Program-made: the position numbers and the translations under genes | NCBI RefSeq assembly: GCF_036365525.1 | Contig: NC_090387.1 | Location: forward strand, 76,817,300-76,881,299 | Direction: 5' to 3' | Length of the DNA: 64,000 nt | From: Heterodontus francisci | Lineage: Eukaryota | The notes under the pieces: generated by a model | The model's input: only the letters and a program-made list of their open reading frames with translations | What the model was told of the DNA's origin: nothing | Databases searched by the model: none | Shown: positions 20,701-57,573 of the stretch, in pieces | Numbering within the stretch: position 1 is the stretch's first letter | Layout: each line of letters starts with the position of its first letter

Positions 20701-23238
20701 GATGTTGGGGGTTTCTACAGGCCTCCCAACAGCCAGCAGGAGGTAGAGGAGCAGATATGTAGACAGATTGTGGAAAGATGTAAAGGTAACAGGGTTGTAG
20801 TGGTGGGTGATTTTAACTTCCCCTATATTGACTGGGACTCACGTAGTGCTAGGGTCTTAGATGGGGCAGAATTTGTAAGAAGCATCCAGGAGGGCTTCTT
20901 GAAACAATATGTAGATAGTCCAACTAGGGATGGGGCCGTACTGGACCTGCTATTGTGGAATGAGCCCGGCCAGGTGGTCGAAGTTTCAGTCGGGGAGCAT
21001 TTCAGGAACAGTGACCATAATTCCATAAGTTTTAAGGTACTTGTGGATAAGGATAAGAGTAGTTCTCGGGTGAGGGTTCTAAATTGGGGGAAGGCTAATT
21101 ATAACAATATAAGGCAGGAACTGAAGAATTTGGATTGGGGGCGGCTGTTTGAGGGTAAATCAACATCTGACTTGTGGGAGTCTTTCAAATGTCAGTTTAT
21201 TAGAATCCAGGATCAACATGTTCCTGTGAGGAAGAAGGATTAGTTTGGCAAGTTTTGGGAACCTTGGATAACGCGGGATATTGTGAGCCTAGTCAAAAAG
21301 AAAAAGGAAGTATTCATAAGGGTTGGCCGTCTAGGAACAAAAGAATCCCTTGAGGAAAATAAAGACAGTAGAAAGGAACTTAAGCAAAGAGTCAGGAGGG
21401 CTAAAAAAGGTTATGAAAAGTCATTGGCAAACAGGATTAGCATAATCCCAAGGCTTTTTACACATATATAAAGAGCAAGAGGGTAACCAGGGAAAGGGTT
21501 GGCCCGCTTAAGGACAGAGAAGGGAATCTATGTGTGGAGCCAGAGGAAAAGGGCGAGGTACTAAATGAGTACTTTGCATCAGTATTCACCAAACAGAAGG
21601 ACTTGGTGGATGATGAGCCCAGGGAAGGGAGTGTAGATTGTCTCAGTCATCTCATTTTCAAAAAGGAGGAGGTGCTGGGTGTCTTGCAAAGCATTAAGTT
21701 AGATAAGTCCCCAGGGCCTGATGGGATCTACCCCAGAATACTAAGGTAGGCAAGGGAAGAAATTGTTGGGGCATTGACAGAAATCTTTGTATCTTCATTG
21801 CCTACAGGTGAGGTTCCAGAGGTGTGGAGAAAAGCCAATGTTGTGCCTTTGTTTAAGAAGGGTAGCAAGGATAATCCAGGAAATTATAGGCCGGTGAGCC
21901 TTACGTCAGTGGTCGGGAAATTATTAGAGAGGATTCTTCGGGACAGGATTTACTCCCATTTGGAAACAAACAAACCTATTAGCGAGAGGCAGCATGGTTT
22001 TGTGAAGGGGAGGTCATGTCTCACTAATTTGATTGAGTTTTTTGAGGAAGTGACAAAAATGATTGATGAAAGAAGGGCAGTTGATGTCATCTATATGGCA
22101 TTCAGTAAAGCCTTTGGCGAGGTCCCTCATGGCAGTCTGGTACAAAAGGTGCAGGCACATGAGATCAGAGGTGAGCTGGCAAGATGGATACAGAACTGGC
22201 TCTGTCATAGAAGACAGAGGGCAGCAGTGGAAGGGTACTTTTCTGAATGGAGGAATGTGACTAGTGGTGTTCCGCAGGGATCAGTGCTGGGACCTGTGCT
22301 CTTTGTAGGAGATATAAATGATTTGGAGGAAAATGTAGCTGGTCTGATTAGTAAATTTGCGGACAACACAAAGGTTGGTAGAGTTGCGGATAGTGATGAG
22401 GATTGTCAGAGGAGACTTGGGCGGAGAAATGGCAGATGGAGTTTAATCGGGACAAATGTGAGGTAATGCATTTTGGAAGATCTAATACAGGTGGGAAGTA
22501 TACAGTAAATGGCAGAACCCTTAGGAGTATTGACAGGCAGAGAGATCTGGGTATACAGGCCACTGAAAGTGGCAACGCAGGTAGATAAGATAGTCAAGAA
22601 GGCATACGGCATACTTGCCTTCATCGGTCGGGGCATAGAGTATAAGAATTGGCAAGTCATGCTGCAGCTGCACAGAACTTTAGTTGGGCCACACTTAGAA
22701 TATTGTGTGCAATTCTGGTCGCCATACTACCAGAAGGACGTGGAGGCTTTGGAGAGGGTACAGAAGAGGTTTACCAGGATGTTGCCTGGTCTGGAGGGCA
22801 TTAGTTATGAGGAGAGGTTGGATAAACTCGGATTGTTTTCACTGGAAAGACGGAGGTGGGTGACATGACAGAGGTTTACAAAGTTATGAGCGGCGTGGAC
22901 AGAGTGGATAGTCAGAAGCTATTTCCCAGGGTGGAAGAGTCAGTTACTAGGGGACATAGGTTTAAGGTGAGGGGGACAAAGTTTAGAGGGATGTGCGAGG
23001 CAAGTTCTTTCCACAGAGAGTGGTGAGTGCCTGGAACTTGCTGCCGGGGGAGATGTTGGAAGCAGGTACGATCATGACATTTAAGAGGCATCTTGACAAA
23101 TACTTGAAAAGGATGGGATTAGAGGGATACGGTCCTCGGAAGTGCAGAAGGTTTTAGTTTAGGCAGGCTTCAAGATCGGCGCAGGCTCGGAGGGTCGAAT
23201 AGCCTGTTCCTGTGCTGTGCTGTACTGTTCTTTATTCT
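17753..23238 (+). mobile_element. Near full-length CR1 LINE (5' UTR, ORF1 Zn-finger/coiled coil at about 20137-20450, ORF2 endonuclease+RT), decayed and interrupted by an inverted CR1
   Basis: CFTC..YICRRC..LERQL in ORF1; VAITETWL, VVGDFNFP, SDHN, PQGSVLGP, FADN in ORF2; multiple stops and frameshifts. The ORF1 C-terminal half appears deleted at about 20450. Confidence 0.88.
18167..20055 (-). mobile_element. Young 5'-truncated CR1 LINE (RT domain intact, one nonsense codon at 18607)
   Basis: 459-aa ORF with QHGF, DFSKAFD, PQGSVLGP, FADD continues in frame into 18244-18597; very similar to 60303-63065. Confidence 0.93.
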
Positions 23239-23589
23239 TTGTTCTTTGAAGCAGGGGGGAGAGAGAGTGACAGAAGTGGGAGGGAGTGGGGAGTAGAAGC
23301 GGGATGGAGCAGGGAACAGAAGAGGGAGAGTACGGGAGTGTGAGAGCAGTAACAGGAGAAGTGAGTGGGAAGCAGAAGTGGGAGGGAACGGGAAGCAGAA
23401 GCGAGAGGGTGTGGCAAGCAGAAGCAGGAGGGTGTGGGGAGCAGAGCAGTGGGGATGAAGCAGTGAGAGAAGTGGGGGAGTAGCAGTGAGCGGCTGGGGG
23501 GAGAAATAGTGAGGCGGGGAGAAAGCAGTGAGCAAAGAGAAGCAATGGCAGGAGGGAGTGGGATACTGCTGGGTTTCATTTGTTTCTGT

Positions 23590-29729: not shown

Positions 29730-32700
29730 GTGATAATGGCTTCTTTCCTTGCTCCTGCACTGTTACCTCTGTTGGCCTACCATGGATCTATCCTTGGCTT
29801 CTGCCTATTCCTCGTTTACTTGTTGCCTTGTCACAACAACATCCAAAAATGGTGTCAGTTTCCACATGTACGCTGATGGCAAGCAGTTCTACCTTATCAC
29901 CACCTCTTTTGATCCCTCCACTGTCTCGCTAAATTTGAGACTGCGTGTCTGATATCCTGTACAGGATGTGCAGAAATTTCCTCCAATCAAATATTGGGAA
30001 GATTAAACCCATTGTATTTGGAGCCTGCTACAAAATCCATTCCCTAATAACTGACGTCCTCCCTTTCCCTAGCAACTATCTGGGGTCTACTCGGACTGTT
30101 TTCAACCCTGGTGTCATATTTTTCTCCAGGATTAGGTTCTGATCACATATCTTCACCATCATTAAGACTGCCTACTTCAACTTCCGTAACATTGTCGACT
30201 CCACCCCAGACTCACTTAATTTGCCTTTCTACCTCTAGACTTGACTACTCTAATGCACTCCTTGCCAGCCTCACATGTTGTACCCTCTCTAAACATGTGG
30301 TCATCCAGAACTCTGCTGTCAGTGTCCTAACTCGCAACAAGTGCCCTTCATTCATCTCCCTATGCTCGCTGACCTACATTGGCTCTTGGTTAAGCAGTGA
30401 CTTGGATAACGTGGGATATTGTGAGCCAAGTCCAAAAGAAAAAGGAAGCATTCGTAAGGGCTGGAAGGCTGGGAACAGACGAAGCCCTTGAGGAATATAA
30501 AGACAGTAGGAAGGAACATAAGCAAGGAGTCAGGAGGGCTAAAAGGGGTCATGAAAAGTCATTAGCAAACAGGATTAAGGAGAATCCCAAGGCTTTTTAT
30601 ACGTATATAAAGAGCAAGAGGGTAACCAGGGAAAATGTTGGCCCACTCAAGGACAGAGAAGGGAATCTATGTGTGGAGCAAGAGGAAATGGGCGAGGTAC
30701 TAAATGAGTACTTTGCATCAGTATTCACCAAACAAAAGGACTTGGTGGATGATGAGTCTAGGGAAGGGAGTGTAGATAGTCTGGGTCATGCTATTATCAA
30801 AAAGGAGGAGGTGTTGGGCGTCTTGCAAAGCATTAAGGTAGATAAGTCCCCAGGGCCTGATGGGATCTACCCCAGAATACTGAGGGAGGCAAGGGAAGAA
30901 ATTGCTGGGGCCTTGACAGAAATCTTTGTATCCTCATTGGCTACAGGTGAGGTCCCAGAGGACTGTAGAATAGCCAATATTGTTCCTTTGTTTAAGAAGG
31001 GTAGCAAGGATAATCCAGAAATTATAGGCCGGTTTAAGAAGGGTAGCAAGGATAATCCAGAAATTATAGGCCGGTGAGCCTTACGTCAGTGGTAGGGAAA
31101 TTATTAGGATTCTTCGGGAGAGGATTTACTCCCATTTGGAAACAAATGGACTTATTAGCGAGTGGCAGCATGGTTTTGTGAAGGGGAGGTCGTGTCTCAC
31201 TAACTTGATTGAGTTTTTTGAGAAAGTGACGAAGATGATTGATGAAGGAAGGGCAATGGATGTTGTCTATGTGGACTTCAGTAAAGCCTTCGACAAGGTC
31301 CCTCATGGCAGACTGGTACAAAAGGTGAAGTCACACGGGATCAGAGGTGAGCTGGCAAGATGGATACAGAACTGGCTCGGTCATAGAAGACAGAGGGTAT
31401 CAGTGGAAGGGTGCTTTTCTGAATGAGGGGATGTGACTAGTTGTGTTCTGCAGGGATCAGTGCTGGGACCTTTGATGCTTGTAGTATATATAAATGATTT
31501 GGAGGAAAATGTAGCTGGTCTGATTAGTAAGTTTGCGGACGACACAAAGGTTGGTGGAGTTGCGGATAGTGATGAGGATTGTCAGAGGATACAGAAGGAT
31601 ATAGATCAGTTGGAGACTTGGGCGGAGAAATGGCAGATGGAGTTTAATCCGGACAAATGTGAGGTAATGCATTTTGGAAGATCTAATACTGGTGGGAAGT
31701 GTACAGTAAATGGCAGAACCCTTAGGAGTATTGACAGGCAGATCTGGGCGTACAGGTCCACAGGTCACTGAAAATGGTGATGCAGGTGGATAAGATAGTC
31801 AAGAAGGCATACGGCATGCTTGCCTTCATCGGTCGGGGCATCGAGCATAAAAATTGGCAAGTCATGCTGCAGCTGCACAGAACTTTATTTAAGCCACACT
31901 GAGAATAATGAATGCAATTCTGGTCGCCACACTACCAGAAGGACGTGGAGGCTTTGGAGAGGGTACAGAAGAGGTTTACCAGGATGTTGCCTGGTCTGGA
32001 GGGCATTAGCTATGAGGAGAGGTTGGATAAACTCGGATTGTTTTCACTGGAACAACGGACGTGCAGGGGCAACATGATAGAGGTTTACAAAGTTATGAGC
32101 GGCATGGACAGAGTGGATAGTCAGAAGCTTTTTCCCAGGGTGGACGAGTCAGTTACTAGGGGACATAGGTTGAAGGTGAGAGGGGCAAATTTCAGAGGGG
32201 ATGTGCGAGGCAAGTTCTTTACACAGAGGTTGGTGAGTGCCTGGAACTTGCTGCCGGGGGAGGTGGTGGAAGCAGGTACTATAGCGACGTTTAAGAGGCA
32301 TCTTGACAAATACATGAATAGGATGGGAATAGAGGGATACGGTCTTGGAAGTGCAGAAGGTTTTAGTCTCGACAGGCATCAAGATCGGCGCAGGCCTGGA
32401 GGGCCGAATGGCCTGTTCCTGCGCTGTACTGTTCTTTGTTCTTTGTAAAGTTCCCTTCCATGTTTTCAAAACCCTCCATGACCTCACCCCTCGTTACCTC
32501 TGTAATCTCCTCCAGCCACGCAACCCTCAGAGATATCTATGCTCTTCGAATTCTGGCCTGTTGAGCACCTCCGATTTTAATCACACCACCATTGCTGGCC
32601 ACGACTTCAGCTGGCAATGCACGAGGCACACAAATTCCCTCCCTAAATCTTTCCACCTCTTTATTCCCCTTTCCTCTTTTAAAACGTTACTTAAAACATA

Positions 32701-33114: not shown

Positions 33115-33175
33115 ATGTTGTCCAGTGTTATATTTCTGTTTCTGTTCCTGTCTCTCCCGGGGATCATTTACCCAG
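33115..33175 (+). CDS. Gene A exon 1: signal peptide MLSSVIFLFLFLSLPGIIYP
   Basis: ATG at 33115, hydrophobic core, phase-1 donor CAG|GTACCT; 193-bp intron to the V exon. Confidence 0.82.
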
Positions 33176-36100
33176 GTACCTGTTTATTCTCAAACCAACC
33201 GTGTCTTTAAAAACAATACCGTAATTAGTTACCATACTAGCCGAACTAAAATTAGTTCGTCCGTCTGTAATATTCTTTCTCTTTTGTATTTTCATGTAGA
33301 AGATGCTGTGAAGTGTACGGTTATGGAATGAATACAATCAACCAAACTTTAAATATATTTTCCAACAGCTGCTTCGGTCACTTTGATCAGCGTGTTTCAA
33401 ACTCCCGAACAAGTAATTACGTTAAACGGGACAGACATCACCTTTTACTGCGTAATCCCCCTTTCTGATGACAATTCAGGGGTCGAAGTACGTTGGTGGA
33501 AAAAGGGCGAGAATGAATATATGCAAACAGGAGTCGATAACAGAAAACAATTTGGTTTCAAAAATAAAGGAGGAGGTTTTTTCGCGTTGCTAAACGCGAC
33601 TTTCCAAGACTCTGGAGTCTATCACTGCGTAGTAATCCGTCAGGGAAAAATTATAGGAAATGGAACAGGATCAAATCTAACTGTATGTGGTAAGTGACCG
33701 ATGTGAACGGGAACGTCCAAATATATCAAATGTAGCTGTTTTGTCATTGTTATATTGCACCCGCTTTGATATTGTAAAACGTATATTGATACGTTTACAG
33801 TGAAACTCTGTACACAACTGCTAATTATGCGGCAAAATATTACCTGTCCTTTGCCGAGTTGCGTAAAACGCTATCAATATTAACAAGGTAACATGTTACA
33901 AATGCAATATACTGCGTATGCTAGAAATCTGAAATATATACAGAAATTGCTAAAAATGCGTAGCCGATTAGGTAATATCTGTGCAGAGGGAAACAGAGTT
34001 ACCGTTTCAGATTTATGACCTGCCATCAGTAAAATGTTACTGGATTCATCTCAAAATGTGCTTCTAACATCAGACTTCTGTTGATGGAAGCTGCGGAAAA
34101 ATGTCCAGATACGTGGATGACTGACTGAAATGTATTCCTACACGACACGGCTCTTGTTTGCACCGATGCTTTGAATGTAAGTGAGGTGTCACACTCTAAC
34201 AAAATTAATTGTCACATTCTGACAGACTGGTTCGCGTGACGGATTTCATATCACATGACATTAACTTTTAATCAATGGATTTTTCCAACAATCTGTCCAT
34301 GTACCAGAATTTCTCCACGTCTTTTGCCTCCAATAAATATAACATTCCGCAGAGACTGTGTCGCTGAAGCCCTCTGAGGTCGAACCGCAGGCAATTCCCC
34401 TCAGCCAATCTCATGCTCTGGCTATGTGAACTGCCCGATATCCACGACGGCCCTCATTTTATTACCGGTAATGGACAGATTATTCGTTTCTCTCGTGGGA
34501 TGACAGACAGACTTAGAATTAATAACAAACATGGATACACTCGAAAATAGTATTTTCCTCAGTAACGTCTCCTCGGTAACCTGATTTCCCCCATTTTCTG
34601 TTCCGCAGCTCCCCCAACCCCATTGAAGCTTTTCTCCAAGCCACCCCAGAACAATTCAGCTACGACTCTGCATCTTGTTTGTGAATCGGCTGCGTTTTAT
34701 CCGGGCGATTTCACCCTCGTTTGGTATAAAAATGGCACCAAAGTCGCAACTGGGATAAATCCGAAAAAATGGCAGAACGCTGAGGGACTTTATGAAGTTT
34801 CCAGCTCTTTGGAAGACATGCAGCCTGTGCCCAACGGGGCTGTTTACATCTGTTTGGTATCTCATATTTCCCTCCAGGTTCCCGCTATTGGCCTCTACGC
34901 GGTTAACAATTCATGCTCAGGTACGGGGTCAACAGGCCATATCGTGTGGTCAGCAATTTGTATATTCGGAAAGGAATTATCATAGTGTTTAATGATATCT
35001 ATTATCGTAAAGATAGTTTGACAATACTAAAGTAAAGAGAAAATTAACGTTTGATTGTAAAAATTGTTGAGCCGAACCTATTGTCAAACCGAAGTACCTT
35101 CTACCCTGAAACCGCCTGTTCAATCCTATTATTTTACATATCTTGCTTATTATTAATTATTGAAATTTGTCCTCTTGTTGAACTGACTTTATTCTTTCCC
35201 ATTATCTGTTTTCCTCTCATGACCTGCGGAACCAGGCTGGACAGTTTGTTTGTTTAGCCTGTGTGGTGCGATTCGCTGTGAATAGGCGACACCTCCATGA
35301 TACAGAGGTTTGGTTTGGGAACTTGTTTCATGCAGTTCCTTCGGAATGTGACCCCAGATTTGTTTCCCTTACAATTGGTTGCAACATGCCAGTTTATTGA
35401 TAACTAGTTTCCTGTAATTGATAAAGAACCGTGTGTGAATTTCAATTCCTGTTCAATAAATGCAGTCCACAGAATTGAGTTAGCATTTCAACCGAATTCA
35501 TACAATAAGCATTTTTTCTAAGGTAGTGGCGCGTCACGTGCCACAGTATTGTTACGATTGCATCAAACAATAATTTAAGAGCAAATGAAAAGCCAAGTAC
35601 AGGAAAAATCCTTTCTGTTCAGCGAAACTAACTCATTTGGAATTCTAATCCTCCCAAACCAATATTCAGAAAATCCGAAACTGGTATTCCTCCTCGCATA
35701 ATATTCCAGCCGTATGCATCCTTTGTGAGAAGTGCCATTTGCTATCAGATCCAGAAATATAAATTAAGATTCATTTCAAATAACCCTCTCCCTCGCCTAA
35801 TTGTTGTAAATATGGGCAGTAGTTTAACCAACAAATTATCTCAAAGTCTCGTTTTTAGGTAATGACTGAAACAAATTAGAACTCAGTACCAATCTTTTTA
35901 ATCTTGCAGAACCTGATGATAAATATTATTACATCTGGGGTTCTGGATGTGCAGTTGGTGGATTGGCGTTTCTGGTGTTCATGATTATAATTGGAACGAG
36001 ATGCAGTTTGAAGAATAAAGGTAAGTATTTCGTTATCGTTTGATTTTAATACAAATCTTCAGGGTAATAGCGAGAGCGTCCAGGGCGGTACAGAAAGAGA

Positions 36101-38716
36101 ATAGCGCGATTATTAATTAATTGTTAAAGTGATGTTATCTCATGCCACAAAGCAGAAATCGCTTCCTGCAAATAGAACTAGATTCAGCATCTTATATAAT
36201 GTAATAATTATCATAGAATCCGGTTATAAAGGATCTGATTATCTAGACATTACCAACGAAAACGCCCACTTTCTGGCAGATGATAAGCGAAATCCGATCG
36301 CTTGTTCCAGCACTTTGGGGTCTATGACTAGTTGAGTAAAGTGTTGTCAGAGTCCAGTCGCGAGCAAATGTACACGACTAATGAAGGTTTCCTGGATTCG
36401 GATTTCCAAAAAAGTTCGGAAAATGTCCTTTCACAAAATAACTGTGGATAAGAAAGCCTATTTTCTCCATCCAAAAATGTGGAATAATCCCCCTAATGTA
36501 GAATCCAACCATTTGTTAAGGGATCCCAGGACGATTGCCTCATTTGCTATATCTGAAAGTTTATTCTCTGTGCGAAGAAGAATTTCTTGACATCATTGCT
36601 AAAATGATCATTTGCTACATCTTTTAACCGGTTTCCCCACAGGTAAATATCTCATACAATACAGGAACTGTAATGTAGTGCTTTTCTGTTACTCCAGTGG
36701 TAATCCAATGGTCTGGATTTATAATCCAGAGAAGATGGCGGCAAACCTCGCCATGGCATTTTGAGAACTTAATTCAGTTTAAATAATTTGGAAATTTAAA
36801 AAAAAACGGCCTGGGTAAAAGACAAGTGACCATATTCTGTTGCATTGCCATAAAATGTTAAAAAATCAATTGATGACATTTGGAGACGGTGTAACGGGGT
36901 CTGGCACATTAACGACTCTGATCCTCCACCTGTGGCCTCTGAAGTGGTTTCGTACGCCGTCTATCTGTCTAAGGGCAACTAATGATGGACAATAAATACT
37001 GCCTTAGTCAGCGACACCCATATCCTGAGGAAGAATTAAGCAAAATTGTGGTTTAACTTTTTCTATATACGTAGTATTGTCATGTATTTCCATAAAATCA
37101 TGGTTCAGACGCCTCCTTTGCAGTTTAACAGATCCAGCTTATCCAGAGTGTCCGCATAACTCAACACCCTGACAATGGGAAATCAGCCTAGCGGCTCTTT
37201 GCGCTGGCACTAGCGCGTCACCATTGGTGACCAGAATTGGTCACAATATCCAGTGGTCCGTGCAGCTGGAGCACTGTACAGTTTCATTGCTCTCTCCTTT
37301 GACTTACATTATACTGTTTTGTCTATGTATTGGTTTTGCCCTTTGATGCTCTGCATTGGATGGACATGTTTAGCGTCTAGTCTACTAAATCCTAGGTCTC
37401 TTTCAGTTCCGTCCTTAGCTATTTCAATCCAATCCATGGAGTATATATGCAGCTTGTTTCTTTTTTTCATCCTGGCTGTAGCGCTTTACTCTTCTCTGAG
37501 TTGAATTTCATCTGACACTGCTCTGACCACCTATATAGGTATATATAAAGTCATGTCAAGCTTTACATTGCCTCTAAAAATACTTTTCAGAACACTAACA
37601 TGGAAACTGAAGAAATATTGTGCTTACTGAATGTAATTAAATTGCATTAATTTGCAGGTAAGCAGGAAAGTAGAACAATACTGAGCACGCATGAAGGACT
37701 GGTAAGTTCATGCCATTTTTCCAAGGAGAGGATTCCAATTTATAGAAATCTTGTTATGATAGAGATACTTTATCACAACCTATTTCGCAAAAGTATTTGT
37801 TTCTTTTCGATGTGTCATTCGCATCGCGTTTTGAAAATCATTTGAACCTGCGATGCTGGTGCAAGTGATTGAAGAGAAGAAAAATTAAATTGGTAGTTTC
37901 AGTCAACAAAATCTAGACAATACTTATGCGTGCATTCATCTAAACCTCGCTTTTGAAAGCTGGCATCACACCTCTAAGATGCAGAACCCGCCTCTTGTTT
38001 AAATATATCTGTAACATTGCATTGTAGTGAAAATCGACAAGATGAAATGGCAGTTACAATAGACACACTATTTACCGGACTTAACATTTGCATAACTTTA
38101 AATGTATTAACTGTGGATTTCTGCATTTTGTTTGTTGCCTAGGCCATTATGTTCATTGTTTGATCAGCAAGCTGTAAACTGGTGAAGGTAATGAACTCGT
38201 CAAATAACAAAACATTTTCTTATTGGTCAATGCAGGGGGAAGAGGACAAGATCGTGACTTATGCTGCAGTGGATTTGAACAAAGCCAAGAAAACTCCAGG
38301 ACGTAAACATGAAGAGGAGATGACAGCGTACGCTCAGGTGGGGCTGAGAAGCAGAGAATAGAAGCATACATATTCCGCGGAGCACCAACATTAATGTAAT
38401 AGCGGAGTATTAGTTGTTCTGACTTTGGCCGTATGCTGCATCTGAAGGTTTTTCTGTGTTATTCTATTGACTGCCTTGAGCAGTCAATGCCACGCCCAGC
38501 AAAGAGACAAATCAACCGTATTTCCAAACATTGTTTTTCCAGATAAAACAAGGGACGTTTCGGGACAAGGTGACAGAGGCGACTCCAGAATTGTCGGGCT
38601 CGAAGAAAGCGGGACAATCTAGAAATAACAGAAGAAGCGCAGAATATGCCGAGCTGGAGATAAAAACCACAAAAGGAGCAACAGAGGCTTTTTACACAGA
38701 AGCAAGAACCAATTAG
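33115..38716 (+). CDS. Gene A: type I membrane IgSF receptor (leader-VJ-C1-TM-cytoplasmic tail with Tyr motifs), SIRP-like/NCR3-related, about 340 aa; 6 coding exons: 33115-33175, 33369-33689, 34609-34920, 35910-36020, 37658-37701, 38543-38716
   Basis: All introns are GT-AG with phases 1,1,1,1,0. Exon lengths 61+321+312+111+44+174 = 1023 nt give an uninterrupted ORF ending in TAG. Every exon has a homologous counterpart in gene B. Confidence 0.88.
33369..33689 (+). CDS. Gene A exon 2: Ig V-set domain with in-exon J-like G strand
   Basis: Acceptor TTTTCCAACAG, donor G|GTAAGT. Motifs: ITFYC (B-strand Cys), VRWWKK (C-strand Trp), DSGVYHC (F strand), NGTGSNLTV (GxG(T/S)xLxV). Confidence 0.93.
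34609..34920 (+). CDS. Gene A exon 3: Ig C1-set domain
   Basis: Acceptor TTCCGCAG, donor G|GTACGG. C1-set signatures: LVCESAAFYPGDFTLVWYKNG, GLYEVSSSL, VYICLVSHISL. Confidence 0.93.
35910..36020 (+). CDS. Gene A exon 4: stalk + uncharged transmembrane helix (EPDDKYYYIWGSGCAVGGLAFLVFMIIIGTRCSLKNK)
   Basis: Acceptor TCTTGCAG, donor AAG|GTAAGT, 111 bp phase 1-1; hydrophobic run followed by basic stop-transfer residues. Confidence 0.9.
37658..37701 (+). CDS. Gene A exon 5: 44-bp cytoplasmic exon (GKQESRTILSTHEGL)
   Basis: Acceptor TTTGCAG, donor CTG|GTAAGT. Converts phase 1 to phase 0 as the last exon requires; same length as the gene B counterpart. Confidence 0.78.
38543..38716 (+). CDS. Gene A exon 6: terminal cytoplasmic exon with AEYAEL (ITIM/ITSM-like) and AFYTEA
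   Basis: Acceptor AAACATTGTTTTTCCAG, nearly identical to the acceptor preceding gene B exon 57388; open to TAG at 38714-38716. Confidence 0.85.
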   Translation: MKQGTFRDKVTEATPELSGSKKAGQSRNNRRSAEYAELEIKTTKGATEAFYTEARTN

Positions 38717-42000: not shown

Positions 42001-43927
42001 ACCGCTTTTAATTCCGGCTTTATTAGTTAAATTCAAATTTCATCATTTGCCGTGGTGGGATTTAAACCCATGTCCCCACAGCAATAACCTACGCTCTAAA
42101 TTACTAGTCTAGTGACACTGCCACTACGCCACCGCCTCCCCACAAGCATAAGCATAGAATTATGTTCCTCAATGAATGCTTGAGTGTTTCAGTTATTCAT
42201 CTACACACAAGTTTCAGTACAGTAAGACACTTGCTTACTTTGACGTATTGCAATGTTGCAATATTGGTAACACGGCTTCCAACTTGTAAGTTGTGGACAA
42301 ATTTCTAAAATGTCAAAAGTATTTAGTTAAAGGGATGCTTAATTTATTCAGTTGCCTTTTTAATTGTAATTGTTTGAAGAGCAGAGATGCTGATTAAAGT
42401 TGTCCCTTGTCACGTTGTCACCTGAGGACTGAAAGTTGTAGGTGCCCAGGCGCTGCATTTTCTGAAGCATTTCTCATGGGATATCCTGTTATTCAGCTTC
42501 ATCCGCATTCTGAGCAGAACACAGGGAAGAGGATAATTGTCACATCACAGTGGGAGAACTTTCATGTAAAATTCATGCTCGCACACTGCCTTAAAACAGC
42601 AGTTTAACAGTATATATAGTGTCTGAAGGCAGTAGTGTATAGGTATTTCCCTTTATAATACTGAAGGAGTAATTGATAGGTTAGAAGATTGCGTTTTCTC
42701 TTTAAGCACACGTTGCCTTTTATTATGTTCAAGACGATGGAAAATTAGAGTTCACAAATGGAAACAAATGTATAGCCCAACATGTACGCGCGTGAGTATC
42801 TACCCGCGCGCGCGCTCACCCGCAGGCTAAATTCATAGTTTCTATGCATACCAAGTGAACGAGTATCCAACCCAGAATATTAAAATAAATATATTATAAA
42901 AAGTGAATATATCAATGAGAAAGGGGAATCGTCTTGGAAGACTCAAACGGTGTAAAATTAATTATTTCGCTCTCTCTATCTTGAATCACCACAAGCTCGT
43001 TGCAATTTCTCACTTTTTAAATTTCTTTCATAAGATGTGGGCGTAGCTGACAAAGTCAGCATTTGTTGCCCGTCCCTAATTGCCCTTGCATTGAGGGGTT
43101 GGCTGATCCATTTCAGCGGGCAGTTAAGAGTCAACCACACAGCTGTAGGTCGAGAGTCCCATGTAGGCCATGTAGATAAGGATGGTAGATTTCCTTCTCC
43201 AAAGGGCACTAGTGAACCAGATGAGTTTTTACAACTATCAGAAATATATTTGCTTCACGATTTTGTAGCCATGGCGCTTTGTGCATTTTGCACCATAGTT
43301 ACAATTCTTAGGGAGAACAAGCTGGGCTTTGAGTTATATCCAGTAAATGATTTCTAGACCGAAAAATCAGGATTCCGGCTCCAAATAAACAGTCGTGTAT
43401 CACACTAACAGCATAATCCAAACTGATCGACGTGACCTAAATTCTAATGAGGCCATTGGCGTTCTAGTGTATATAGATAATATGACAGTTCCAGAATGTA
43501 CACTTTGCAAACAATGGGAGCACGGTGTGACAGAGATTGCATCCTACCGAGCTGTAAGGCGATTGCACATAGAGTCGAGATATAGAGATGCATATCGTAG
43601 CAGGAAATTCTGCCCTTCCTGTTTACTAAGGCAGCAAATTGAAGCTGCATGTATATTTAGCTTCAACCACAGACGATCAGTTGCAAGCAGATGTACATGT
43701 TCGTTCATCTACAGTTCAGCAAATCTGCAGCGATTATCAGTTTTGCAAAGAAAAGTCAGACTTAACCTTATTTCACAAATATCCAAGAATGCGCAGTTTT
43801 GATGCAAACACACCCTGACAGTTATCTGAGCAATTTCTTTCTGTGTAATCTTTAGACTAATTTTCAGCTTGTAGTTTTTACCTGAAAGATAAGAACTGTA
43901 TTTACTTTGAAAGAAAAATCTTTCACT

Positions 43928-46460
43928 GGATGTGGGCGTCGCTGGCTAGGCCAGCATTTATTGCCCATGCCGAATTGCCCTTGAGAAAATGGTGGTGAGC
44001 CGCCTTCTTTAAGCATTGCAGTCCAGGTGGTGCTGGTACACTCAAAGTGCTGTTACGAAGGGAGTTCCAGGATTTTGACTGTGACAGTGAAGGAATGGTG
44101 ATATAGTTCCAAGTTTGGATGGTCTGTGGCTTGGAGGGGAACTTGCAGGTGGTGGTATTGCCATGAATCTGTTGCCCTTGTCCTTCTAGGTGGTAGAGGT
44201 CGTGGGTTTGGAAGATGATGTCGAAGGAGGCTTGGTGAGTTGCTGCAGTGCATCTTGTAGATGGTACACACTGCTACCACTGTGCATCGGTGGTGGAGGG
44301 AGTGAATGTCGAAGATTGTGGATGGGGTGCCAATGAAGCGGGCTGCTTTGTTCTGGATGGTATCGGGCTTTTTGAGTACACTCATCCAGGCAAGTGGAGA
44401 GTATTCCATCACACTCTTGACTGGTGCCTTGCAGATAGTCGACAGGCTTTATGGAATCAGGTGGCGAGTTACTTGCTGAGAATTCCTAGCCTCTGACTTG
44501 TTCTTGTAGCCACAGTACTTATATGGCTGTTCCAGTTCAGTTGCTGGTCAATGGCAACCCCCAGGATAGTGGAGGATTCAACCATGGTGCTGTCATTTAA
44601 TGTCACGGGGTGATGCTTGGATTCTCTCTTGTTGGAGATGGTTATTGCCTGGCGTGAATGTAACTTGCCACTTATCAGCCCAATCCGGAATGTTGTCCGC
44701 TCTTGATGCATATGGACACAGAGGAGTTGCAAATATTACTGAACATTGTGTAATCATCAGCTAACATCCCCACTTCTGACATTCGGATGGACGAAGGGTT
44801 ATTGATGAAGCATCTGAACATGGTTGGGACTAGGACACTACCCTGAGGAACTCCTAAATGATGTCCCGGGACTGAAATGATTGACCTCGAACAACAACAA
44901 CCATCTTCCTTTGTGCTAGATATGACTTCAACCAGTGAAGAGTTCTCTCCCTGATTCCCATTGATTCCAGTTTTGCTTGGGCTCGTTGATGTCACATTCA
45001 GTCAACTGCTGCCTTGAGGTCAAGGGAAAACACTCTCACCTCACCTCTTGAGTTCAGCTCTCTTGTCCATGTTTGGCCAAGGCTGTAACGAGGTCAAGAG
45101 CTGAGTGGCCCTGGCAAAATCCAAACTGAGCATCAGCGAGCAGGTTACTTCTGAGTAAGTGCCACTTGATAGTGCTGTCGGCGACACGTTCCATCACTTT
45201 GCTGCTGATCGGGAATAGACTGATAAGGCTGGCAATTGGCCAGGTTGGATTTGTCCTGCTTTTTGAGGACAAGACATACCTGGGCCATTTTCCACGTTGC
45301 TGGGTAGATGCCAGTGTTGTAGCTGTACTGCAACAGCTTGACTAGGGGCGTGGCCAGTTCTGGAGCACAAGTCTTCTGTAGTATTGCTGGAATGTTGTCA
45401 AGGCCCAGGCCTTTGCAGTTTCCAGTGCCTTCAACCGTTTCTTGATATAACGTGGAGTGAATCGGAATGGCTGGGGACCTCAGGGGGACGCCGAGATTGA
45501 TCATCCAATTGGCACTTCTGGCGAAAGATTGTTGCAAATGCTTCAGCCTTGTCTTTTGCACTGATATGCTGGGCTTCTCCATCATATAGAATAGGGACAT
45601 ATGTGGAGTCTCCTCCTCTTGTTAGTTGCTTAATTGTCCAACAACATTCATGACAGGATGTGGCAGGATTGCAGTGCTTAGATCTGATCCGTTGGTTGTG
45701 GAATTGTTTAGCTCTGTCTATCGCATGCTGCATCCATTGTTTGGCATGCATGTAGACCTGTGCTGTAGCTTCACCAGTTTGACATCACATTTTAGGTACG
45801 CCTGGTGCTGCTCCTGACATGCCCTCCTGCACTCTTCATTGAACCATTGTTGATCCCCTGGCTTGATTCCAATGGTAAAGTGGGGGATCGGCTGGGCCAT
45901 GAAGCTACAGATTGTGGTTCAATACAATTCTGCTCCTGCTGATGGCCCACAGCGCCTCACGGATGCCCAGTTTTGAGTTGAGAAATCTGTTCGAAATGTA
46001 TCCCATTTAGCACGGTGGTAGTGCCACACAACAGGATGGAGGGTATACTCAATGTGATGACGGGACTTCGCCTCCACAAAGACAGTGTGGTTGTCACTCC
46101 TAGCAATACTGTCATGGACAGATTCATCTGTGACTGGTAGATTGGTGAGAACGAGGTCAAGTATGTTTTCTACCTTATTGACTCCCTGACCACCTGCTGC
46201 AGACTCAGTCTAGCAGCTATATCCTTTAGGACTCGGACAGCTCAGTCAGTAGTGATGCTACCGCACCACTCTTGGCGATGAACATTGAAGTCCCCCACTC
46301 AGAATACATTCTGTGCTGTTCCAACTGTCAGTGCCTCTTCCAGGCGTTGTCCAACATGGAGGAGTAGGGATGACAGGGCTGGGTTTGCCATTGTCATTCC
46401 CGGTGCCTAGGTCGATGCTGGGTGGTCTGTCCAGTTTCATTCCTTTTAGTCTTTTCTCCA
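43928..46460 (-). mobile_element. Decayed CR1/L2-group LINE (endonuclease + RT)
   Basis: GVPQGSVLVP, MLADD, QFGF, MEYSPLAWM remnants; same family as 59601-63348. Confidence 0.85.
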
Positions 46461-47457: not shown

Positions 47458-48508
47458 TGTTAGATCAAGGCGGGAGGAGTGCACTGTTTATTCTAGTCCC
47501 ACCTCTCCACACGTCACAACATATACTTAAATGTTCACAGACTGATATGGTCAATCATATACTCTACTTTTTCCAGAATAAAATACACCAACCAGGTTTC
47601 TTTAACAAACAACAAAATGATGAGTTTAGTATAAAAAAGTATTAACCCATAATGAAGTAAAGCATAAACACAGTTTGAAATATAACAGTTCACTATTTAC
47701 CTTAGCCCTTCACACACATACACACACACACGCTGGTTAACAAGACAATTAAAAGAAAATTTTTCTTTAGAGCTCGGTTACCAAAAGAAAATCAACAAAA
47801 ATAAACACTTAGGCTGAATATGTGCTCATTATTGAAGAAAAAGGTAAATATATAGAAAGATCTCCTTGGTTGTAGTTTGATATTCCAAATGCATATAGAA
47901 GGCTGTCACAGGGATTATCCGAGAACAGTTCTTTCCAGATGATGTTGAAGATCTGTTTGAGTAGGCTTTCCAAGAAATGCATCTACAGAGGCTTCCTATA
48001 GGCCTTACAGCAGAAATGCGGCAACAGTGGTTTCAGTTCCCACACATTCAATATGCAAGGTTTCTTCAAGTACAGGAAGAAAGAAGAGACTGACACATTG
48101 GACACGCAGTTTATTTCAAAGGGAGAGGAAGAGATAAGCTGCGTTTCCTTGGCAGGCAACAAACAACTGTCTTCCAGGCAGTTTACCCTCTAACTCACTG
48201 CCCAAAATGAATCCAAAGCAATGTCACAAGAATAAAGCCTCCTGACCTCTTTAAATCTTGACCTGTCACTTCTCTGTAAACATCTTCTCCAAGTCAAAAT
48301 AGCAAGCTCCCTGTTGGTATTTTATCTGAAAACAGGTGTCTTCCAGTATGGGCTTGTTTACAAGCCAAGTACAGGAAGCATTCTGGTGACCTCTGCCGAA
48401 AAAACAGCAAGTTTAGCATCTCTTCAAGCTTCCAGATGAATTAATGTCCATAATTCAACTATAAGCCCTGAAAAGCATATTTTACAAAAAAGAAGCGCCC
48501 TTATAACA
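47458..48508 (-). mobile_element. Solo LTR with 4-bp TSD AATT
   Basis: TGTTA...TAACA termini; AATT at 47454-47457 and 48509-48512; homologous to 55774-56676. Strand inferred by analogy with the Gypsy LTRs. Confidence 0.85.
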
Positions 48509-49561: not shown

Positions 49562-49616
49562 ATGTCTGCGAGGGCTGTGCTTCAGGGCATACAATTCATG
49601 GAGTTTATCTTCCTAG
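49562..49616 (+). CDS. Gene B exon 1: putative leader MSARAVLQGIQFMEFIFL
   Basis: ATG at 49562, phase-1 donor TAG|GTATTT, 119-bp intron containing (CT)n. Less hydrophobic than a typical signal peptide. Confidence 0.62.
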
Positions 49617-52600
49617 GTATTTTCCACTGTTCGCTCTGGTTTTTTTTTGTTTCTCTCTTGCTCTCTCTCTCTCTCTCTCTCTCGCTAAATCTCTCCCAGT
49701 GCTTTTTATAACTATAACTAAATTTTGTTTTTTAGTTGCTGCCGATATTCTGGTTGAAGTGACCCAGGTCCCTGAAAATATCTATTCGATCGTTGGTACA
49801 GATATTGCATTCAATTGCATATTTCCTACTTTTCAAGATGATTCAGATGTGAATGTTTATTGGTGGAAACTTGGCGGAAAGGAATTGATACAACCAGGAT
49901 CAGACAGTAGGAAACGTTTTGTCAATGAGAAAGGAAGAGCCTCCTTTCAACTTTTGAATGTCAGTGTCCAGGACTCCGGAGTCTATCACTGTGGAGTAGC
50001 ACATCTAGGAAACAGAATCGCAAATGGAAGTGGATCACAACTTGTCGTCAGTGGTAAGAGATGTGTAAAGACCGGATCTGCTGTATAGACTCACCGTTAT
50101 TCAAAATAAATGATAAAAGTATAGCATTCCCTTCCCCTGTCTCTGGTACTGCTTTAACATTTGCATTGGCAATCAAATACTTCAATAGATTTTAGTTATG
50201 AAATAACGTGTGGCACTCTGGGCTGCTTTTCAACCATCTTAATTAATTTAATAATAATTATTTCTGCTCTTTCATTCATTGCACAGGAAGCGTTTTCATG
50301 CCATTTCGGTGCGAATAAAGAATGTGAAATAACTTGAAAGGTTTTCAGTACAAATAATATTTCGGACAGTTACAAAGTAAATTTTGATGACCATCTGCAG
50401 TAGAAAGATCATGCTAAAAGTGTTGTTATTAAGTCGAAAGTCTAATTTCAAGACGAATTCAAAAGTTACTCTACGTGATTATTTTTGAATGCCGTGTTAC
50501 TGCTCTTCTTGTAGAATGCCCATTTATGTAGCACATTTGGTGCCCCGAGGCGTTTTAGTAACAATTAAGTGTTTTTGAAATGTAGTCACCTTTTTAATGC
50601 AGGAGAACGTGACAGCCAATGTACACCCAGCAATGTCCTACAAATAGAAATGAGATAATGACCAGATAGTTAATGATAGTGTTTGGAGGATAAATATTTG
50701 CCAGGGCAATATACTTCGCCGAATAGTGCTGGGGGATCCCTTATGTTCACCTAAGAGGTCAGAAGGGGCCGAGAAATAATATCTCATCCAAAGGACGGCG
50801 CTTTTTTCCTACAGTATAGCACTCCCTCCTACTGCATTGAAGGGTCAGTTTTGATTTATGTACTCAAGTCTCGGATTAGACTTGGAACTCACAATATTCT
50901 TACTCGGAGGTAATGGTGCTGCCACTCAGCTACGGTTACCACTGTATGCTCGAAATCTGAGGGATCAGACTCTCAGATGCCTGGCTGTATTTCCTGTTAT
51001 TCAATCAGTAGCTTCATTCAGCTCTTGGCTGACTGACACAAGAATTTTATTTGTCTCAAACCCCTTCAAAAACGGATATACCATCGAGAAAGAATTTTAT
51101 GAATGTGTCCCTGAGTTGTGCAAACGCTATTCGCCCCAATTCTTACATTTCAGTGAGAAATGTCTCTCACATGCTAAAGTAACCCTTGAAATGAAGGTTT
51201 TGCCTTGATTTAAATCCTCGATTGCGATGTTATACGTTCCTTGTAAATCGTGTAAGCAGTGGGACTAAACCCCATGCTGGAAATTGAATTCCTTTCGTGG
51301 TTGTGATTAATTGAGAGAACTTGTCAGTCAAAAATGCTATGCCGTCCCTGCTTATTTCTCAGATTACAGTCAGTGATAAAACGGGTGCTGTATGTAGGAT
51401 TGCAACTCCCCTGCTTACTGTAGGTCGCGACACAGTATGAGCACATTCTGGAGGGTTCGTCAGGTCGCAAATGGAGGGCATAGAATGTGTTCACAAACAC
51501 AGCTCTTATTCACTACAGAAGACGACCGAATGCTTCATCCATGCTTATTCGATTCTTTTACCTAATGAGGTAATACAGGAGAGTCAGGTTTGGAGATTTT
51601 ACACAGGGAACAATATAAATGCACTGAGTTTTATCATCTGGAATGCACCATCTGAAAGGGTGTTGGAAGCAGATTCAGTAGCAACTTCAAAAGGACATTT
51701 GGTAAATGCTTGAAGGGAAACATTTGCAGAGCTGCACAGTGGCGCAGTGGTTAACACCGCAGCCTCACAGCTCCAGCGACCCGGGTTCAATTCTGGGTAC
51801 TGCCTGTATGGAGTTTGCAAGTTCTCCCTGTGTCTGCGTGGGTTTCCTCTGGGTGCTCCGGTTTTCTCCCACATGCCAAAAGACTTGCAGGTTGGTAGGT
51901 AAATTGGCCATTATAAATTGCCCCTAGTGTAGGTAGGTGGTAGGGAAATATAGGGACAGGTGGGGATGTGGTAGGAATATGGGATCAGTGTAGGATTAGT
52001 ATATATGGGTGGTTGATGGTCGGCACAGACTCGGTGGGCCGAAGGGCCTGTTTCAGTGCTGCATCTCTAAACTGAACTAAGCTCTATGGAATAACTTAAG
52101 ATGGGCAGAGTGGCATTCTTCTGTGCAGTACCGCTGTATGCTTCTATAATCTACAGTAATTAATACCGCAATGTTTTCACTTCATCATTAACAAACAAAT
52201 TGATAGCTCTGTTAGGCTGTTATAGCCCACCCGAAATCATACCTCTCGTTTGGGAAAGGCCGCCATAAAGGTCAATGCCATTCTAAGTTCCAGAATAGAC
52301 GAGATATTAACTTTCTACTTCGACCTTTTACCAGCTCCCCCAACTCCGGTGAGGATTGTTTCCCAGGCATCTGAGAGTAATGTATCCGGTGCTTTGGCTC
52401 TCGTGTGTGAAATGGCTTCATTCTACCCAGAGGCACTAACTATCACTTGGTACAAAAATAATGTAAACGTTGAGACTGGAATACACACCACGAAACAACT
52501 TAGCAGAGCCGGAATGTATGAAGCTTCCAGCTATTTTGAAGAGGCACAGTCTGTCCAGGGAGGAACTGTTTACGTCTGTCTGGTTTCTCACGCAACTCTC

Positions 52601-54080
52601 CAGGTACCAGCCATGGCAATTTACTTGGTTCCTAATTCTAAGCCAGGTAAGATGTCATTTTTCTTAGAAAAACGAACATGTGACAGGGTTAGATTTCTTC
52701 CTTTCGTTATTGAAAGGGAAAGTGTTAGAAATTCCATTATTGGCGGTCGTATGGGTTGGAACGAACGGAGCGTTGATGAAACAAAGCGACTGTGGGAGAA
52801 TTTTACATTCATATAAAGCAGAGAAACACAATATGCCTAGACATACCTAACAGAGAAAGCCTTCACTAAAATAAGTTACGATATAACCACACGTAGTGGC
52901 AAGGGTAAATATTACTTCAACCAATTGACTCCTTAAAACAAAAACAAAAAATCAAATTTTAGTATCATCAGTAGAACCTGCTCCTGGCCCGCAGTGTGAA
53001 AAAAGGATATCGAGGCCATGGATCGGTTAGCTAACAAGAGGCATAGAGTAAAAAAAGGCTGAAATGAGCGGTAGCGCAAAATGGGCGGTCACGAATCAGC
53101 AGCCGGTTTTTCATTTCTTCTGATTGTTTTTCCATTAGCCCGCTTTCCACCGGTCAGTAAATATAACTTAGCTCCCCGCAATCACTCAGCCCCCTCCCCT
53201 CCACCCCCCTCCCCCGCTCAAAACCGCTTCGTTTAGTTTTAAACAGCGTTAAATGAATTTCTATCAGCTTACCCTTTGATTTCCAATGCTAAACTATCAA
53301 GAAATTGTTCAATATCAGATTCTTTTTACGGCTCTGACTGTCGATGGCACACTCCACAATGCGCAGCTCCATATATTAAAGTTATATTTATCTTACAGGC
53401 GGTGACAGCACCTCGCCCTCCACTTATTTACGGATATTTGGATGTATAGGGTTTGCATTGGCGTTTTTGGTGCTGATGACCGTCATTAGAACGTCGTTCA
53501 GATTCGTTAACTGTAAAGGTAAGATGTCACCCGATCGTTTAATCACAACCAGCAGAGACGGCTAGTTGGTAGCGAGAAAGGATTGATCCACGATTTCACT
53601 TAAAGGCTAAAAGTATTGTGGGCGCTGGAATAGAGCTATGGTGATTGTTGAATTGTGAAATCGGACTGTGGTCCTGAAATGCAGCATTTATCTTAGATTG
53701 GAATGAGCAGAAATGTGGATTGTACTCCCTCCCACCGCATAACGATCCGAAAATCGTCTCCCTGGCTTACACTAGATTAAATTTAGGAGGCGATGAACAT
53801 ATCCCAAATTCTTTGCTCTGTCGTTTAGGAAGAAATGTCAGGTTGTTTTCCGTAGGGAGCAATTATGCACTCTTATTTGTTAATTAACGGCATAAACGCA
53901 AATTCGGAAATTTTGCGAACTTTCCCGACTTTTTTTCTCACTGTAAATTAACATTCATGGTACTTGGAATGTATGGTTCCATTCATGGAACCATATCGTG
54001 CATCATTGGCAATGACGTTTTCTTTTTCTTTTGTTTTAGTAAGCAGACAGAGAAAGGATGAAGCAAACAATTGTGACTAG
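49562..54080 (+). CDS. Gene B: paralogous IgSF receptor (leader-VJ-C1-TM with Arg-short tail), about 281 aa; coding exons 49562-49616, 49736-50053, 52335-52646, 53399-53518, 54040-54080
   Basis: GT-AG phase-1 introns; 55+318+312+120+41 = 846 nt ending in TAG at 54078-54080. C1 domain about 50% identical to gene A (hand count 51/104). Confidence 0.82.
49661..49683. repeat. (CT)n microsatellite in gene B intron 1
   Basis: Directly visible. Confidence 0.9.
49736..50053 (+). CDS. Gene B exon 2: V-set domain with J-like strand
   Basis: Motifs IAFNC, VYWWKL, DSGVYHC, NGSGSQLVVS; acceptor TTTTTAG, donor G|GTAAGA. Confidence 0.93.
50510..50933 (-). mobile_element. Old Deu-domain SINE (SacSINE1/AmnSINE-like) in gene B intron 2
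   Basis: Minus strand begins TAGCTGAGTGG (A box) ... GAGTTCCAAGTC (B box-like). The central region resembles the Deu domain from memory; not database-verified. Confidence 0.55.
51734..52080 (+). mobile_element. tRNA-derived SINE (HE1/V-SINE-like) in gene B intron 2
   Basis: A box TGGCGCAGTGG 51740-51750, B box GGTTCAATTCT 51784-51794; 3' end resembles CR1 tails. Confidence 0.92.
52335..52646 (+). CDS. Gene B exon 3: C1-set domain
   Basis: LVCEMASFYPEALTITWYKN ... VYVCLVSHATL; 312 bp, same length as in gene A; donor G|GTAAGA. Confidence 0.93.
53399..53518 (+). CDS. Gene B exon 4: stalk + TM with Arg (GGDSTSPSTYLRIFGCIGFALAFLVLMTVIRTSFRFVNCK)
   Basis: Acceptor TCTTACAG, donor AAG|GTAAGA; shares GC....LAFLV.M with the gene A TM. 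Confidence 0.88.
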
Positions 54081-54083
54081 TCT
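54040..54083 (+). CDS. Gene B exon 5: 44-bp cytoplasmic exon with in-frame stop (VSRQRKDEANNCD*)
   Basis: Long polypyrimidine tract + TAG acceptor, donor TCT|GTAAGT, same size as gene A exon 5; TAG at 54078-54080. Confidence 0.75.
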
Positions 54084-54275: not shown

Positions 54276-54487
54276 CAAAATGCTGGAAATACTCAGCAGG
54301 TCTGGCAGCATCTGTGGAGAGAGAAGCAGAGTTATCGTTTCAGGTCGTTAACTCTTGTTCATGTCGTTAACAACCTGAAACGTTAACTCTGCTTCTCTCT
54401 CCACATATGCTGCCAGACCTGCTGAGTATTTCCAGCATTTCTTGTTTTTATTTCAGATTTCCAGCATCCGCAGTATTTTGCTTTTAC
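54276..54487. repeat. Inverted pair of the Penelope-LTR-like repeat forming a long palindrome
   Basis: AAATGCTGGAAATACTCAGCAGGTCTGGCAGCAT... is mirrored by ...ATGCTGCCAGACCTGCTGAGTATTTCCAGCATTT. Confidence 0.8.
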
Positions 54488-57387: not shown

Positions 57388-57573
57388 ATCTTACAAGAAG
57401 CAGTTGATAACTCACAGTCTTACGCAGCCGTCGAACTGCTTAGTTCTTAGAAAAATTGAAAACCTAGAAGGAAAGAAAAAGGCACAGAATACGCAGAAAT
57501 AAAGACGGTAGATCAAAAGAGAAAAGTGCCGCTCGTCTACACAGAACCAAGTTTCAAATTATACCAATTCTAG
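57388..57573 (+). pseudogene. Gene B fossil terminal exon (former ITIM/ITSM tail, now predicted 3' UTR)
   Basis: Reads ILQEAVDNSQSYAAVELLSS*KN*KPRRKEKGTEYAEIKTVDQKRKVPLVYTEPSFKLYQF*. Aligns without gaps to gene A exon 6; internal stops at 57448-57450 and 57457-57459; acceptor conserved. Confidence 0.85.

Follow-up and report, generated by a model that had tools for sequence, protein, structure and literature searches.

A cluster of more than 40 VJ-C1 receptor genes in cartilaginous fish, likely encoding paired inhibitory and activating innate leukocyte receptors

Organization of the two genes of the locus and transcription of gene 1

The window analyzed here, i.e. the whole stretch of 64,000 nucleotides from contig C17 of the Heterodontus francisci genome, contains two forward-strand genes in which a leader exon is followed by a single-exon VJ domain and a true C1-set exon. 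The exons and motifs of this module are those described in an earlier note on this DNA, as are the leader introns of 193 nt (gene 1) and 119 nt (gene 2). That description was accurate up to the C1 domain but ended there, leaving out the transmembrane exon and the three cytoplasmic exons with their tyrosine motifs, the tail that has decayed in gene 2, and the large family to which both genes belong. Gene 1 is composed as follows, with positions given in the window and the source of each assignment in brackets.

33115..33175, + strand: gene 1 exon 1, leader (exon model; following 193-nt intron present in RNA contigs X2 and X3)
33369..33689, + strand: gene 1 exon 2, single-exon VJ domain with Asn at the J-Phe place of the G strand (exon model, Pfam, RNA contigs)
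34609..34920, + strand: gene 1 exon 3, C1-set domain (exon model, Pfam, RNA contigs)
35910..36020, + strand: gene 1 exon 4, uncharged transmembrane segment (exon model, RNA contigs)
37658..37701, + strand: gene 1 exon 5, 44-nt cytoplasmic exon (exon model, RNA contigs)
38236..38337, + strand: gene 1 exon 6, ITIM (VTYAAV) and ITSM-type motif (TAYAQI, finished across the splice) (RNA contigs)
38543..38716, + strand: gene 1 exon 7, coding portion carrying the third motif (AEYAEL) and the stop (RNA contigs)

The seven exons encode a product of 374 aa, consisting of a leader, the VJ and C1 domains, a transmembrane segment free of charged residues and a cytoplasmic tail bearing the tyrosine motifs VTYAAV, TAYAQI and AEYAEL in this order. 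All six predicted introns were retrieved as GT..AG joints in RNA contigs built from three runs of one sample, which bear no tissue labels, include no listed run recorded as RNA and had rare variants dropped. A single 1,400-nt contig spans the gene from the V domain to the 3' UTR, which extends to at least 39400. In these contigs the C1 exon, the only one of the gene, is spliced straight onto the transmembrane exon, and use of a minor alternative acceptor near 33299 brings in a stop. A 45-nt exon considered at 38143-38187 was rejected, as it holds an in-frame stop and is skipped in RNA. Gene 1 is a V-C1-transmembrane receptor gene that does not rearrange, is transcribed and encodes a tail with tyrosine motifs.

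Gene 2 lies downstream, with the following composition.

49562..49616, + strand: gene 2 exon 1, leader (exon model; model identical to protein P0001)
49736..50053, + strand: gene 2 exon 2, single-exon VJ domain (exon model, Pfam, structure model)
52335..52646, + strand: gene 2 exon 3, C1-set domain (exon model, Pfam)
53399..53518, + strand: gene 2 exon 4, transmembrane segment (exon model)
54040..54083, + strand: gene 2 exon 5, 44-nt cytoplasmic exon with an in-frame TAG 3 nt before the donor (exon model)
57388..57522, + strand: gene 2 decayed ITIM/ITSM exon with two in-frame stops (65% identity to the intact tail of bamboo-shark protein P0005)

Its predicted product of 281 residues is identical to P0001, named NCR3 ligand 1-like at NCBI for Heterodontus francisci. 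A stop located so near the last junction usually escapes nonsense-mediated decay, and the predicted gene 2 transcript would follow this rule. Gene 2 is a former inhibitory member of the family that has lost its ITIM tail; it probably now serves as a decoy, is switching from one class to the other or is at an early stage of becoming a pseudogene. Its transmembrane Arg is no proof of activation because the ITIM-bearing relative P0005 carries the same Arg; a role as activating receptor on the strength of this residue was rejected.

A 380-nt repeat, 73% identical between its copies, lies up- and downstream of the gene 2 coding exons (47468-47836 and 55785-56148), and a palindromic pair of short interspersed repeats occupies 54278-54440, within the last intron of this gene. 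Decayed copies of a non-LTR retrotransposon (reverse transcriptase) are present on both strands at 18174-23246, 30394-32448, 43919-46400 and 59603-63046, together with several other short interspersed repeats.

A shortened V domain joined to a true C1 domain

The V and C1 exons have AG/GT borders and are in phase 1. The two V exons match the Pfam V-set profile at 34.5 and 34.8 bits (cut-off 26) and the two C exons the C1-set profile at 41.1 and 49.7 bits (cut-off 21), and the C1 model of a relative superposes on the membrane-proximal domains of MHC II with an rmsd of 1.3-2.2 over 92-98 residues. The reported absence of flanking RSS was borne out: none was found within 5 kb of either gene, and a window-wide scan returned two weak matches only, at 5283 and 27999. 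Extended to the 59,415 nt in and behind 42 V exons of the family, the search gave no RSS match; in the same genome the scanner recovered RSS at five of six split Ig/TCR V loci and at none of four germline-joined loci.

The G strand departs from a canonical J segment. At the place of the J Phe/Trp, the 35 V exons that could be parsed (7 of the 42 could not) have Asn (27), Asp (6) or Lys (2), and none of these 35 contains the F/W-G-x-G motif. An N-glycosylation sequon falls on this place in 26 of the 35; a glycan at this V-V interface position would hinder Fv-type pairing. The CDR3-equivalent loop of the parsed exons comprises only 8-10 residues, and the Cys-Cys spacing is 54-59 in all 41 family V domains measured, against 65-73 in full-length references of Ig, TCR and NCR3 type. 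In the model of the gene 2 V domain (pLDDT 89), strand C'' is absent and C' is down to one bridge. The V domain of this family is thus shortened and is not an antigen-receptor V.

These features bear on the idea that the genes are germline-joined IgL or TCR genes, which the earlier note had named as an outcome that would contradict its own proposal. Such Ig genes do exist in sharks, according to PMC12227049 and to four loci of the present genome (L041, L042, L059, L060), and an approximately unbiased (AU) test on the C1 alignment (~100 columns) did not reject a grouping with IgL (p=0.175) nor with TCR-like C (p=0.087). However, the V alignment, also of ~100 columns, rejects a grouping with IgL (p=0.034), and the J residue, the short loop, the Cys spacing, the missing C'', the ITIM tail and the chromosome all differ. 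This identity is largely refuted, and we hold it to be extremely improbable.

Structural comparisons did not single out a relative for the V domain. VNAR, NKp30 and NCAM are the nearest folds to the gene 2 V model, all near-equal in score, with NKp30 at rank 3 in Foldseek (TM 0.78), and the V-only model gave NCAM2, VNAR, VH/VL, TCR V and CD147 tied within 1 Z, i.e. without discrimination. The two-domain model retrieved only Fab chains in Foldseek, at an uninformative rmsd of ~9, and the ESM Atlas returned generic V-C1, SIRP and V-set clusters. B7-H6 was the top match of a two-domain model in the Z-scored comparison (Z 15.9, rmsd 4.5, 188 aligned), which, with the automatic name of gene 2, could designate these genes as B7H6/tapasin-like ligands. 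Yet V-C proteins without any relationship score within 1 Z of this match, the ITIM tails, Arg-type partners and V homogenisation described below are receptor traits, and the B7-like C1 domains (P0144, P0149, P0153) stand apart from the family in the C1 tree, which makes the ligand identity very unlikely.

A large chondrichthyan family on a single contig

The gene 1 V domain has at least 47 matches in the Heterodontus francisci genome, all on C17, and its C1 domain at least 53, 50 of them on C17, where they are grouped at 71.0, 76.1-77.1, 88.4-90.8 and 92.5 Mb. Forty-two V domains were examined in the genome; outside the window, where 45 of the V matches lie, they cover 40 of these. Each is a single exon open through the G strand, bar L018, which has one stop. 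In addition, L040 is devoid of both cysteines, the C1 of L015 is frameshifted and L039 is apparently decayed. Amino-acid identity between V domains of the family has a median of 40% and ranges from 25 to 99%.

Relatives in other species were collected via gene 2, P0005 and alignments. A 27-sequence profile retrieved 75 proteins, 72 of them from chimaera, sharks and rays, the remainder being a SIRP-like protein of camel, which ranked next, and two I-set proteins of arthropods. All matches from a given species lie on contigs of one length. At least 150 proteins were listed by a second profile search; in a sample of 20 of these, every V-C1 family member came from a chondrichthyan, the others being multi-V receptors of reptiles and two SIRP-like proteins. 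Automatic annotation has scattered the family among six or more names that contradict one another: SIRP-like, tapasin-like, NCR3-ligand-like, Ig lambda-like, CD276-like and TCR beta-like. The literature searched, which included PMC3964593 and PMC8455134 in part, yielded no description of the C17 cluster; a prior mention in Fu 2019, Ohta 2019, Flajnik 2012/2023, Kinlein 2021, Janes 2023, Dornburg and Yoder 2022 or their supplements is a real possibility, though clearly below even chance.

Several members depart from the common layout. The skate protein P0026 has a duplicated C1, the sole such protein noted, and the catshark model P0002, which may be a fused annotation or a real V-V-C1 form, has a pair of V domains from distinct subfamilies ahead of its one C1. 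At L037 (L092:2800-4150) two tyrosine exons are tandemly duplicated, giving up to eight motifs. In one subfamily (L087:2400-2600 with L022; P0070, P0071, P0105, P0183), the transmembrane segment starts with PWW and precedes a Cys- and Lys-rich tail without ITIM. It is conserved from chimaera to rays, the V domains of L022 and of chimaera P0105 grouping at 96/95, and may have a separate, older function.

Two classes of signalling ends and matched V domains

The family displays two classes of signalling ends. Among 146 family proteins, whose tails derive from automatic gene models, 113 have a transmembrane segment, representing 104 distinct segments. ITIM-type motifs accompany 6 of the 30 segments with an Arg or Lys in the outer half, against 43 of the 74 without (Fisher p=4.7e-4, a value overstated because family members are related and their kinship is ignored); conversely, 24 of the 30 charged segments lack an ITIM, and both Arg and ITIM are missing in 31 of the 104. 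A distinct transmembrane segment ending in I-I-V-D-H characterizes one Arg class, and in other subfamilies the Arg takes the place of a small residue within the ordinary segment.

The 42 genes of the genome were assigned to 14 ITIM, 11 Arg-type, 8 neutral with tail unseen, 3 PWW, 2 special (gene 2 and L032) and 4 unclassed genes. Tyrosine exons were retrieved in 16 of them, including gene 2 and L032. No tyrosine exon was counted in the 11 genes with an Arg-type segment, with the reservation that at L004, L006, L007 and L035 this was judged in stretches of 10-20 kb, downstream of which ITIM exons could sit; L015, counted as lacking such an exon, has a weak match to one. For 9 of the 11 Arg-type genes the nearest V is that of an ITIM gene (binomial p=0.0017 against 14/41, likewise overstated by kinship), and for 7 of the 11 the nearest V is at least 96% identical in nucleotides.

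V domains are more alike than their flanks between neighbors of opposite class. Gene 1 and L001, located 42 kb upstream, share 99.4% identity in V, 97.5-98.4% in intron 2 and 94.8% in C1, against 83-90% in the flanks (leader, intron 1 and intron 3), and no tyrosine exon was found between the Arg-transmembrane exon of L001 and gene 1. Likewise, L003 and L004 are 98.4% identical in V, 83.0% in C1 and 77-90% in the flanks, with a dS of 0.014 in V against 0.451 in C1. Homogenisation of V between opposite partners is clear in these two pairs, for which the flanks were measured, and matches the pattern of homogenised ligand-binding exons described for opposing receptors in PMC3210942. The pair L007/L008 does not follow it: its identity is near-equal in C1 (99%) and V (98%), as plain duplication would give. 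In V, dN does not exceed dS (0.41 and 0.62 in the two larger subfamilies).

The criteria for paired receptors used here are those of PMC3210942 and PMC2413239. In those sources PIR/LILR, KIR, NKG2, Siglec-11/16 and Xenopus XFL are likewise clustered and germline-encoded, with an ITIM class and a charged-transmembrane, short-tailed class, and the ligand-binding exon is homogenised between partners as in the shark family. The latter differs by an ectodomain made of VJ and C1, like one Ig light or TCR chain, instead of C2-type or lectin domains. The NxxR motif that PMC2413239 describes for FcR-gamma-binding segments is not kept either, and the likeness seen is one of organization. A zeta-family adaptor exon is present in the genome, on contig C10.

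Chromosomal location

Contig C17 carries FTO and a four-homeodomain ORF read as ZFHX3-like, which we take to represent the human 16q block. The linkage to MHC or to TCR/Ig loci, proposed in the earlier note as a check, proved negative. MHC class I genes are on C29 and small contigs, with none of 64 MHC-I matches and none of 28 proteasome matches on C17. Ig/TCR-type exons are on C8, C23, C34, C42 and C46, according to the best 150 of 626 C1-set and the best 150 of 2,384 V-set candidates, and C17 is absent from both sets of best 150 matches. Two groups of NCR3-type VJ exons (L050, L051, L102, L104, L106) were observed on the MHC contig, at C29:14.9-15.4 and 31.0-31.9 Mb of the genome (G000), one of them adjoining class I genes at 32 Mb. 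NCR3/NKp30 resembles the family by its single-exon VJ with GxG and by the Foldseek rank reported above, but the NCR3-type exons have a Cys spacing of 70, and a downstream C1 was not detected for three of them, in contrast to the C1-bearing genes of C17.

Phylogenetic position and relation to the pre-RAG receptor

Reference domains were taken from the same genome and from stored proteins, the labels IgL, IgH, TCR, MHC, NCR3 and UrIg-like being assigned from characteristic motifs and not from database annotation. In the V tree the family forms a clade (99/99) apart from Ig/TCR. In the C1 tree built under a mixture model, it is again a clade (99/100), set on a long stem, and is excluded from the Ig/TCR clade (97/83), to which the UrIg-like C1 from C29 does belong.

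The earlier note had proposed these genes as candidate relatives of the pre-RAG receptor, an origin compatible with the paired-receptor interpretation. The non-rearranging VJ and the true C1 on which it relied do stand, and the split leader, the GxG of the single-exon VJ, the two-domain layout resembling an Ig light or TCR chain and the occurrence of the family in both chimaera and elasmobranchs are in line with it. A profile search of PDB sequences also gives light chains, SIRP-alpha, CD276 and UrIg2 near-equal scores, and the AU test leaves a grouping with Ig/TCR unrejected (C1 p=0.256, V p=0.184). On these alignments, a deep sister relationship to Ig/TCR is neither rejected nor supported. 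The special candidacy was not supported: free trees never unite the family with Ig/TCR although the UrIg-like C1 does join them, the V domain is shortened, C17 lacks linkage to the relevant loci, and the family has the fast turnover of paired receptors. Furthermore, GxG also occurs in CTLA4-type non-rearranging V domains (PMC11599192), and linkage and structure favor UrIg2 instead (PMC12227049). We consider this origin unlikely. Most likely, the family consists of innate paired receptors with a VJ-C1 ectodomain and is not a privileged pre-RAG relic.

UrIg and UrIg2 share with the family the single-exon VJ, the split leader, the C1 and the elasmobranch host. As described in PMC12227049, they have 3 to 11 C1 domains, few copies, MHC or Ig/TCR linkage and AgR-like domains; the shark family has one C1 and is on C17 rather than on C29 or C34.

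Multi-V receptors of turtles and a viper (P0033, P0079, P0088, P0125, P0150), with 3-6 tandem J-like V domains, ITIM and Arg-transmembrane forms and unrelated automatic names, were considered as orthologues, which the comparisons did not bear out. They were sister to the family (95/86) in the first V tree, a join that dissolved in a second tree, which gained three IgL rows and omitted 14 rows of the family and 8 others. Grouping the family with the reptile receptors and NCR3 costs just 1.0 lnL in this second tree, and P0125 matches the C29 NCR3-type exons at E 3.8e-10 against 7e-6 for C17, in a search with a stricter first look.

SIRP and other VJ-C1 receptors

SIRP receptors combine a J-like V, true C1 domains, a repeated ITIM/ITSM tail and paired forms, with Lys and DAP12-type partners. 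The first four of these traits are common to the shark family, which differs from the V-C1-C1 layout of SIRP by its one C1, its shorter V, its Arg in place of Lys, its chromosome and the lack of a reciprocal best match. PRARP (Fu 2019) and the Xenopus VJC1 genes (Ohta 2019) reportedly have a non-rearranging VJ-C1-transmembrane-ITIM/ITSM layout. Gene 1 has the layout so described; no PRARP sequence was recognized among the proteins collected. PRARP is MHC-linked according to PMC10751288, whereas the shark family comprises 40-plus genes on the FTO chromosome, with activating-type partners.

The family could accordingly be a translocated and diverged chondrichthyan branch of SIRP or of PRARP/VJC1, i.e. 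a known family situated elsewhere. The C1 domain grouped with SIRP domain 2 at 81/83 under LG+G4, with three SIRP-like proteins sampled, SIRP-gamma and SIRP-alpha are in the top four PDB sequence matches of the gene 1 C1, the camel SIRP-like protein is the first match outside chondrichthyans, many NCBI names are SIRP-like, and the tail has repeated ITIM and ITSM motifs. However, neither the C1 tree under the mixture model nor the V trees recover the SIRP grouping, and a coelacanth SIRP-like query has its best V match on C29, in the NCR3-type exons, its best C1 match on C14 and its first C17 match at rank 22 of 120. Syntaphilin-family genes (PF15290), the single synteny marker used and one which we take to indicate the SIRP region of human 20p13, are on C16 and C5 and not on C17. 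With the single C1 and the MHC linkage of PRARP also opposing it, we regard such a branch as an unlikely account, although a somewhat more plausible one than the pre-RAG origin.

Proposed function

Little is established about the receptors that inhibit or activate NK-like and myeloid cells in sharks. We propose that the 40-plus genes of the cartilaginous-fish cluster, of which gene 1 is one member, probably encode paired inhibitory and activating innate leukocyte receptors with a VJ-C1 ectodomain. The monomeric V domain of gene 1 would bind a cell-surface ligand, possible candidates being self markers (MHC class I, for instance) and microbial mimics, and its phosphorylated tail would recruit SHP-1 or SHP-2, leading to inhibition. 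L001 would bind the same or a mimicking ligand and activate the cell via a zeta/FcR-gamma-type adaptor, as may the other short-tailed members with an Arg in the transmembrane segment. The match between the V domains of two partners would be maintained by gene conversion, as in the PIR, NKG2 and Siglec-11/16 pairs. A more ambitious version, in which VJ-C1 modules of the same pre-RAG stock as Ig/TCR, as old as the chimaera-shark split, would be the cartilaginous-fish equivalent of KIR/Ly49 and read MHC class I for missing-self control by killer cells, seems to us improbable, slightly more so than the pre-RAG origin by itself.

The family is thus a large, single-locus candidate for such shark receptors, extending from chimaera to rays and obscured by its conflicting automatic names, and its matched pairs make ligand and signalling tests direct. 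The VJ-C1 exon pair is by itself no mark of a pre-RAG gene, this layout also serving innate paired receptors, which here sit away from the MHC and Ig/TCR chromosomes.

Other non-rearranging VJ and C1 exons of the genome

Additional exons of interest were encountered in the same genome (G000). Two C1 exons (L109, L110) are located at C10:82.28-82.52 Mb, one of them followed by a transmembrane exon, at ~3 Mb from the zeta-family exon. In the C1 tree, the C10 domain branches as the sister of the Ig/TCR clade (91/81), and no V exon was found for these genes in ~110 kb; they could be a better non-rearranging relative of antigen receptors than the C17 family. At C13:120.34-120.44 Mb, L048 and L108 each have a VJ domain in one exon, with frameworks resembling those of Ig/TCR and an NGT G strand preceded by a very short loop; their V falls inside the Ig/TCR V group, and no C1 was seen in 10 kb. 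More C1 exons off the MHC and Ig contigs are present at C12:34.18-34.21 Mb (L111) and C14:55.38 Mb (L079), the C12 one with a downstream transmembrane-like exon.
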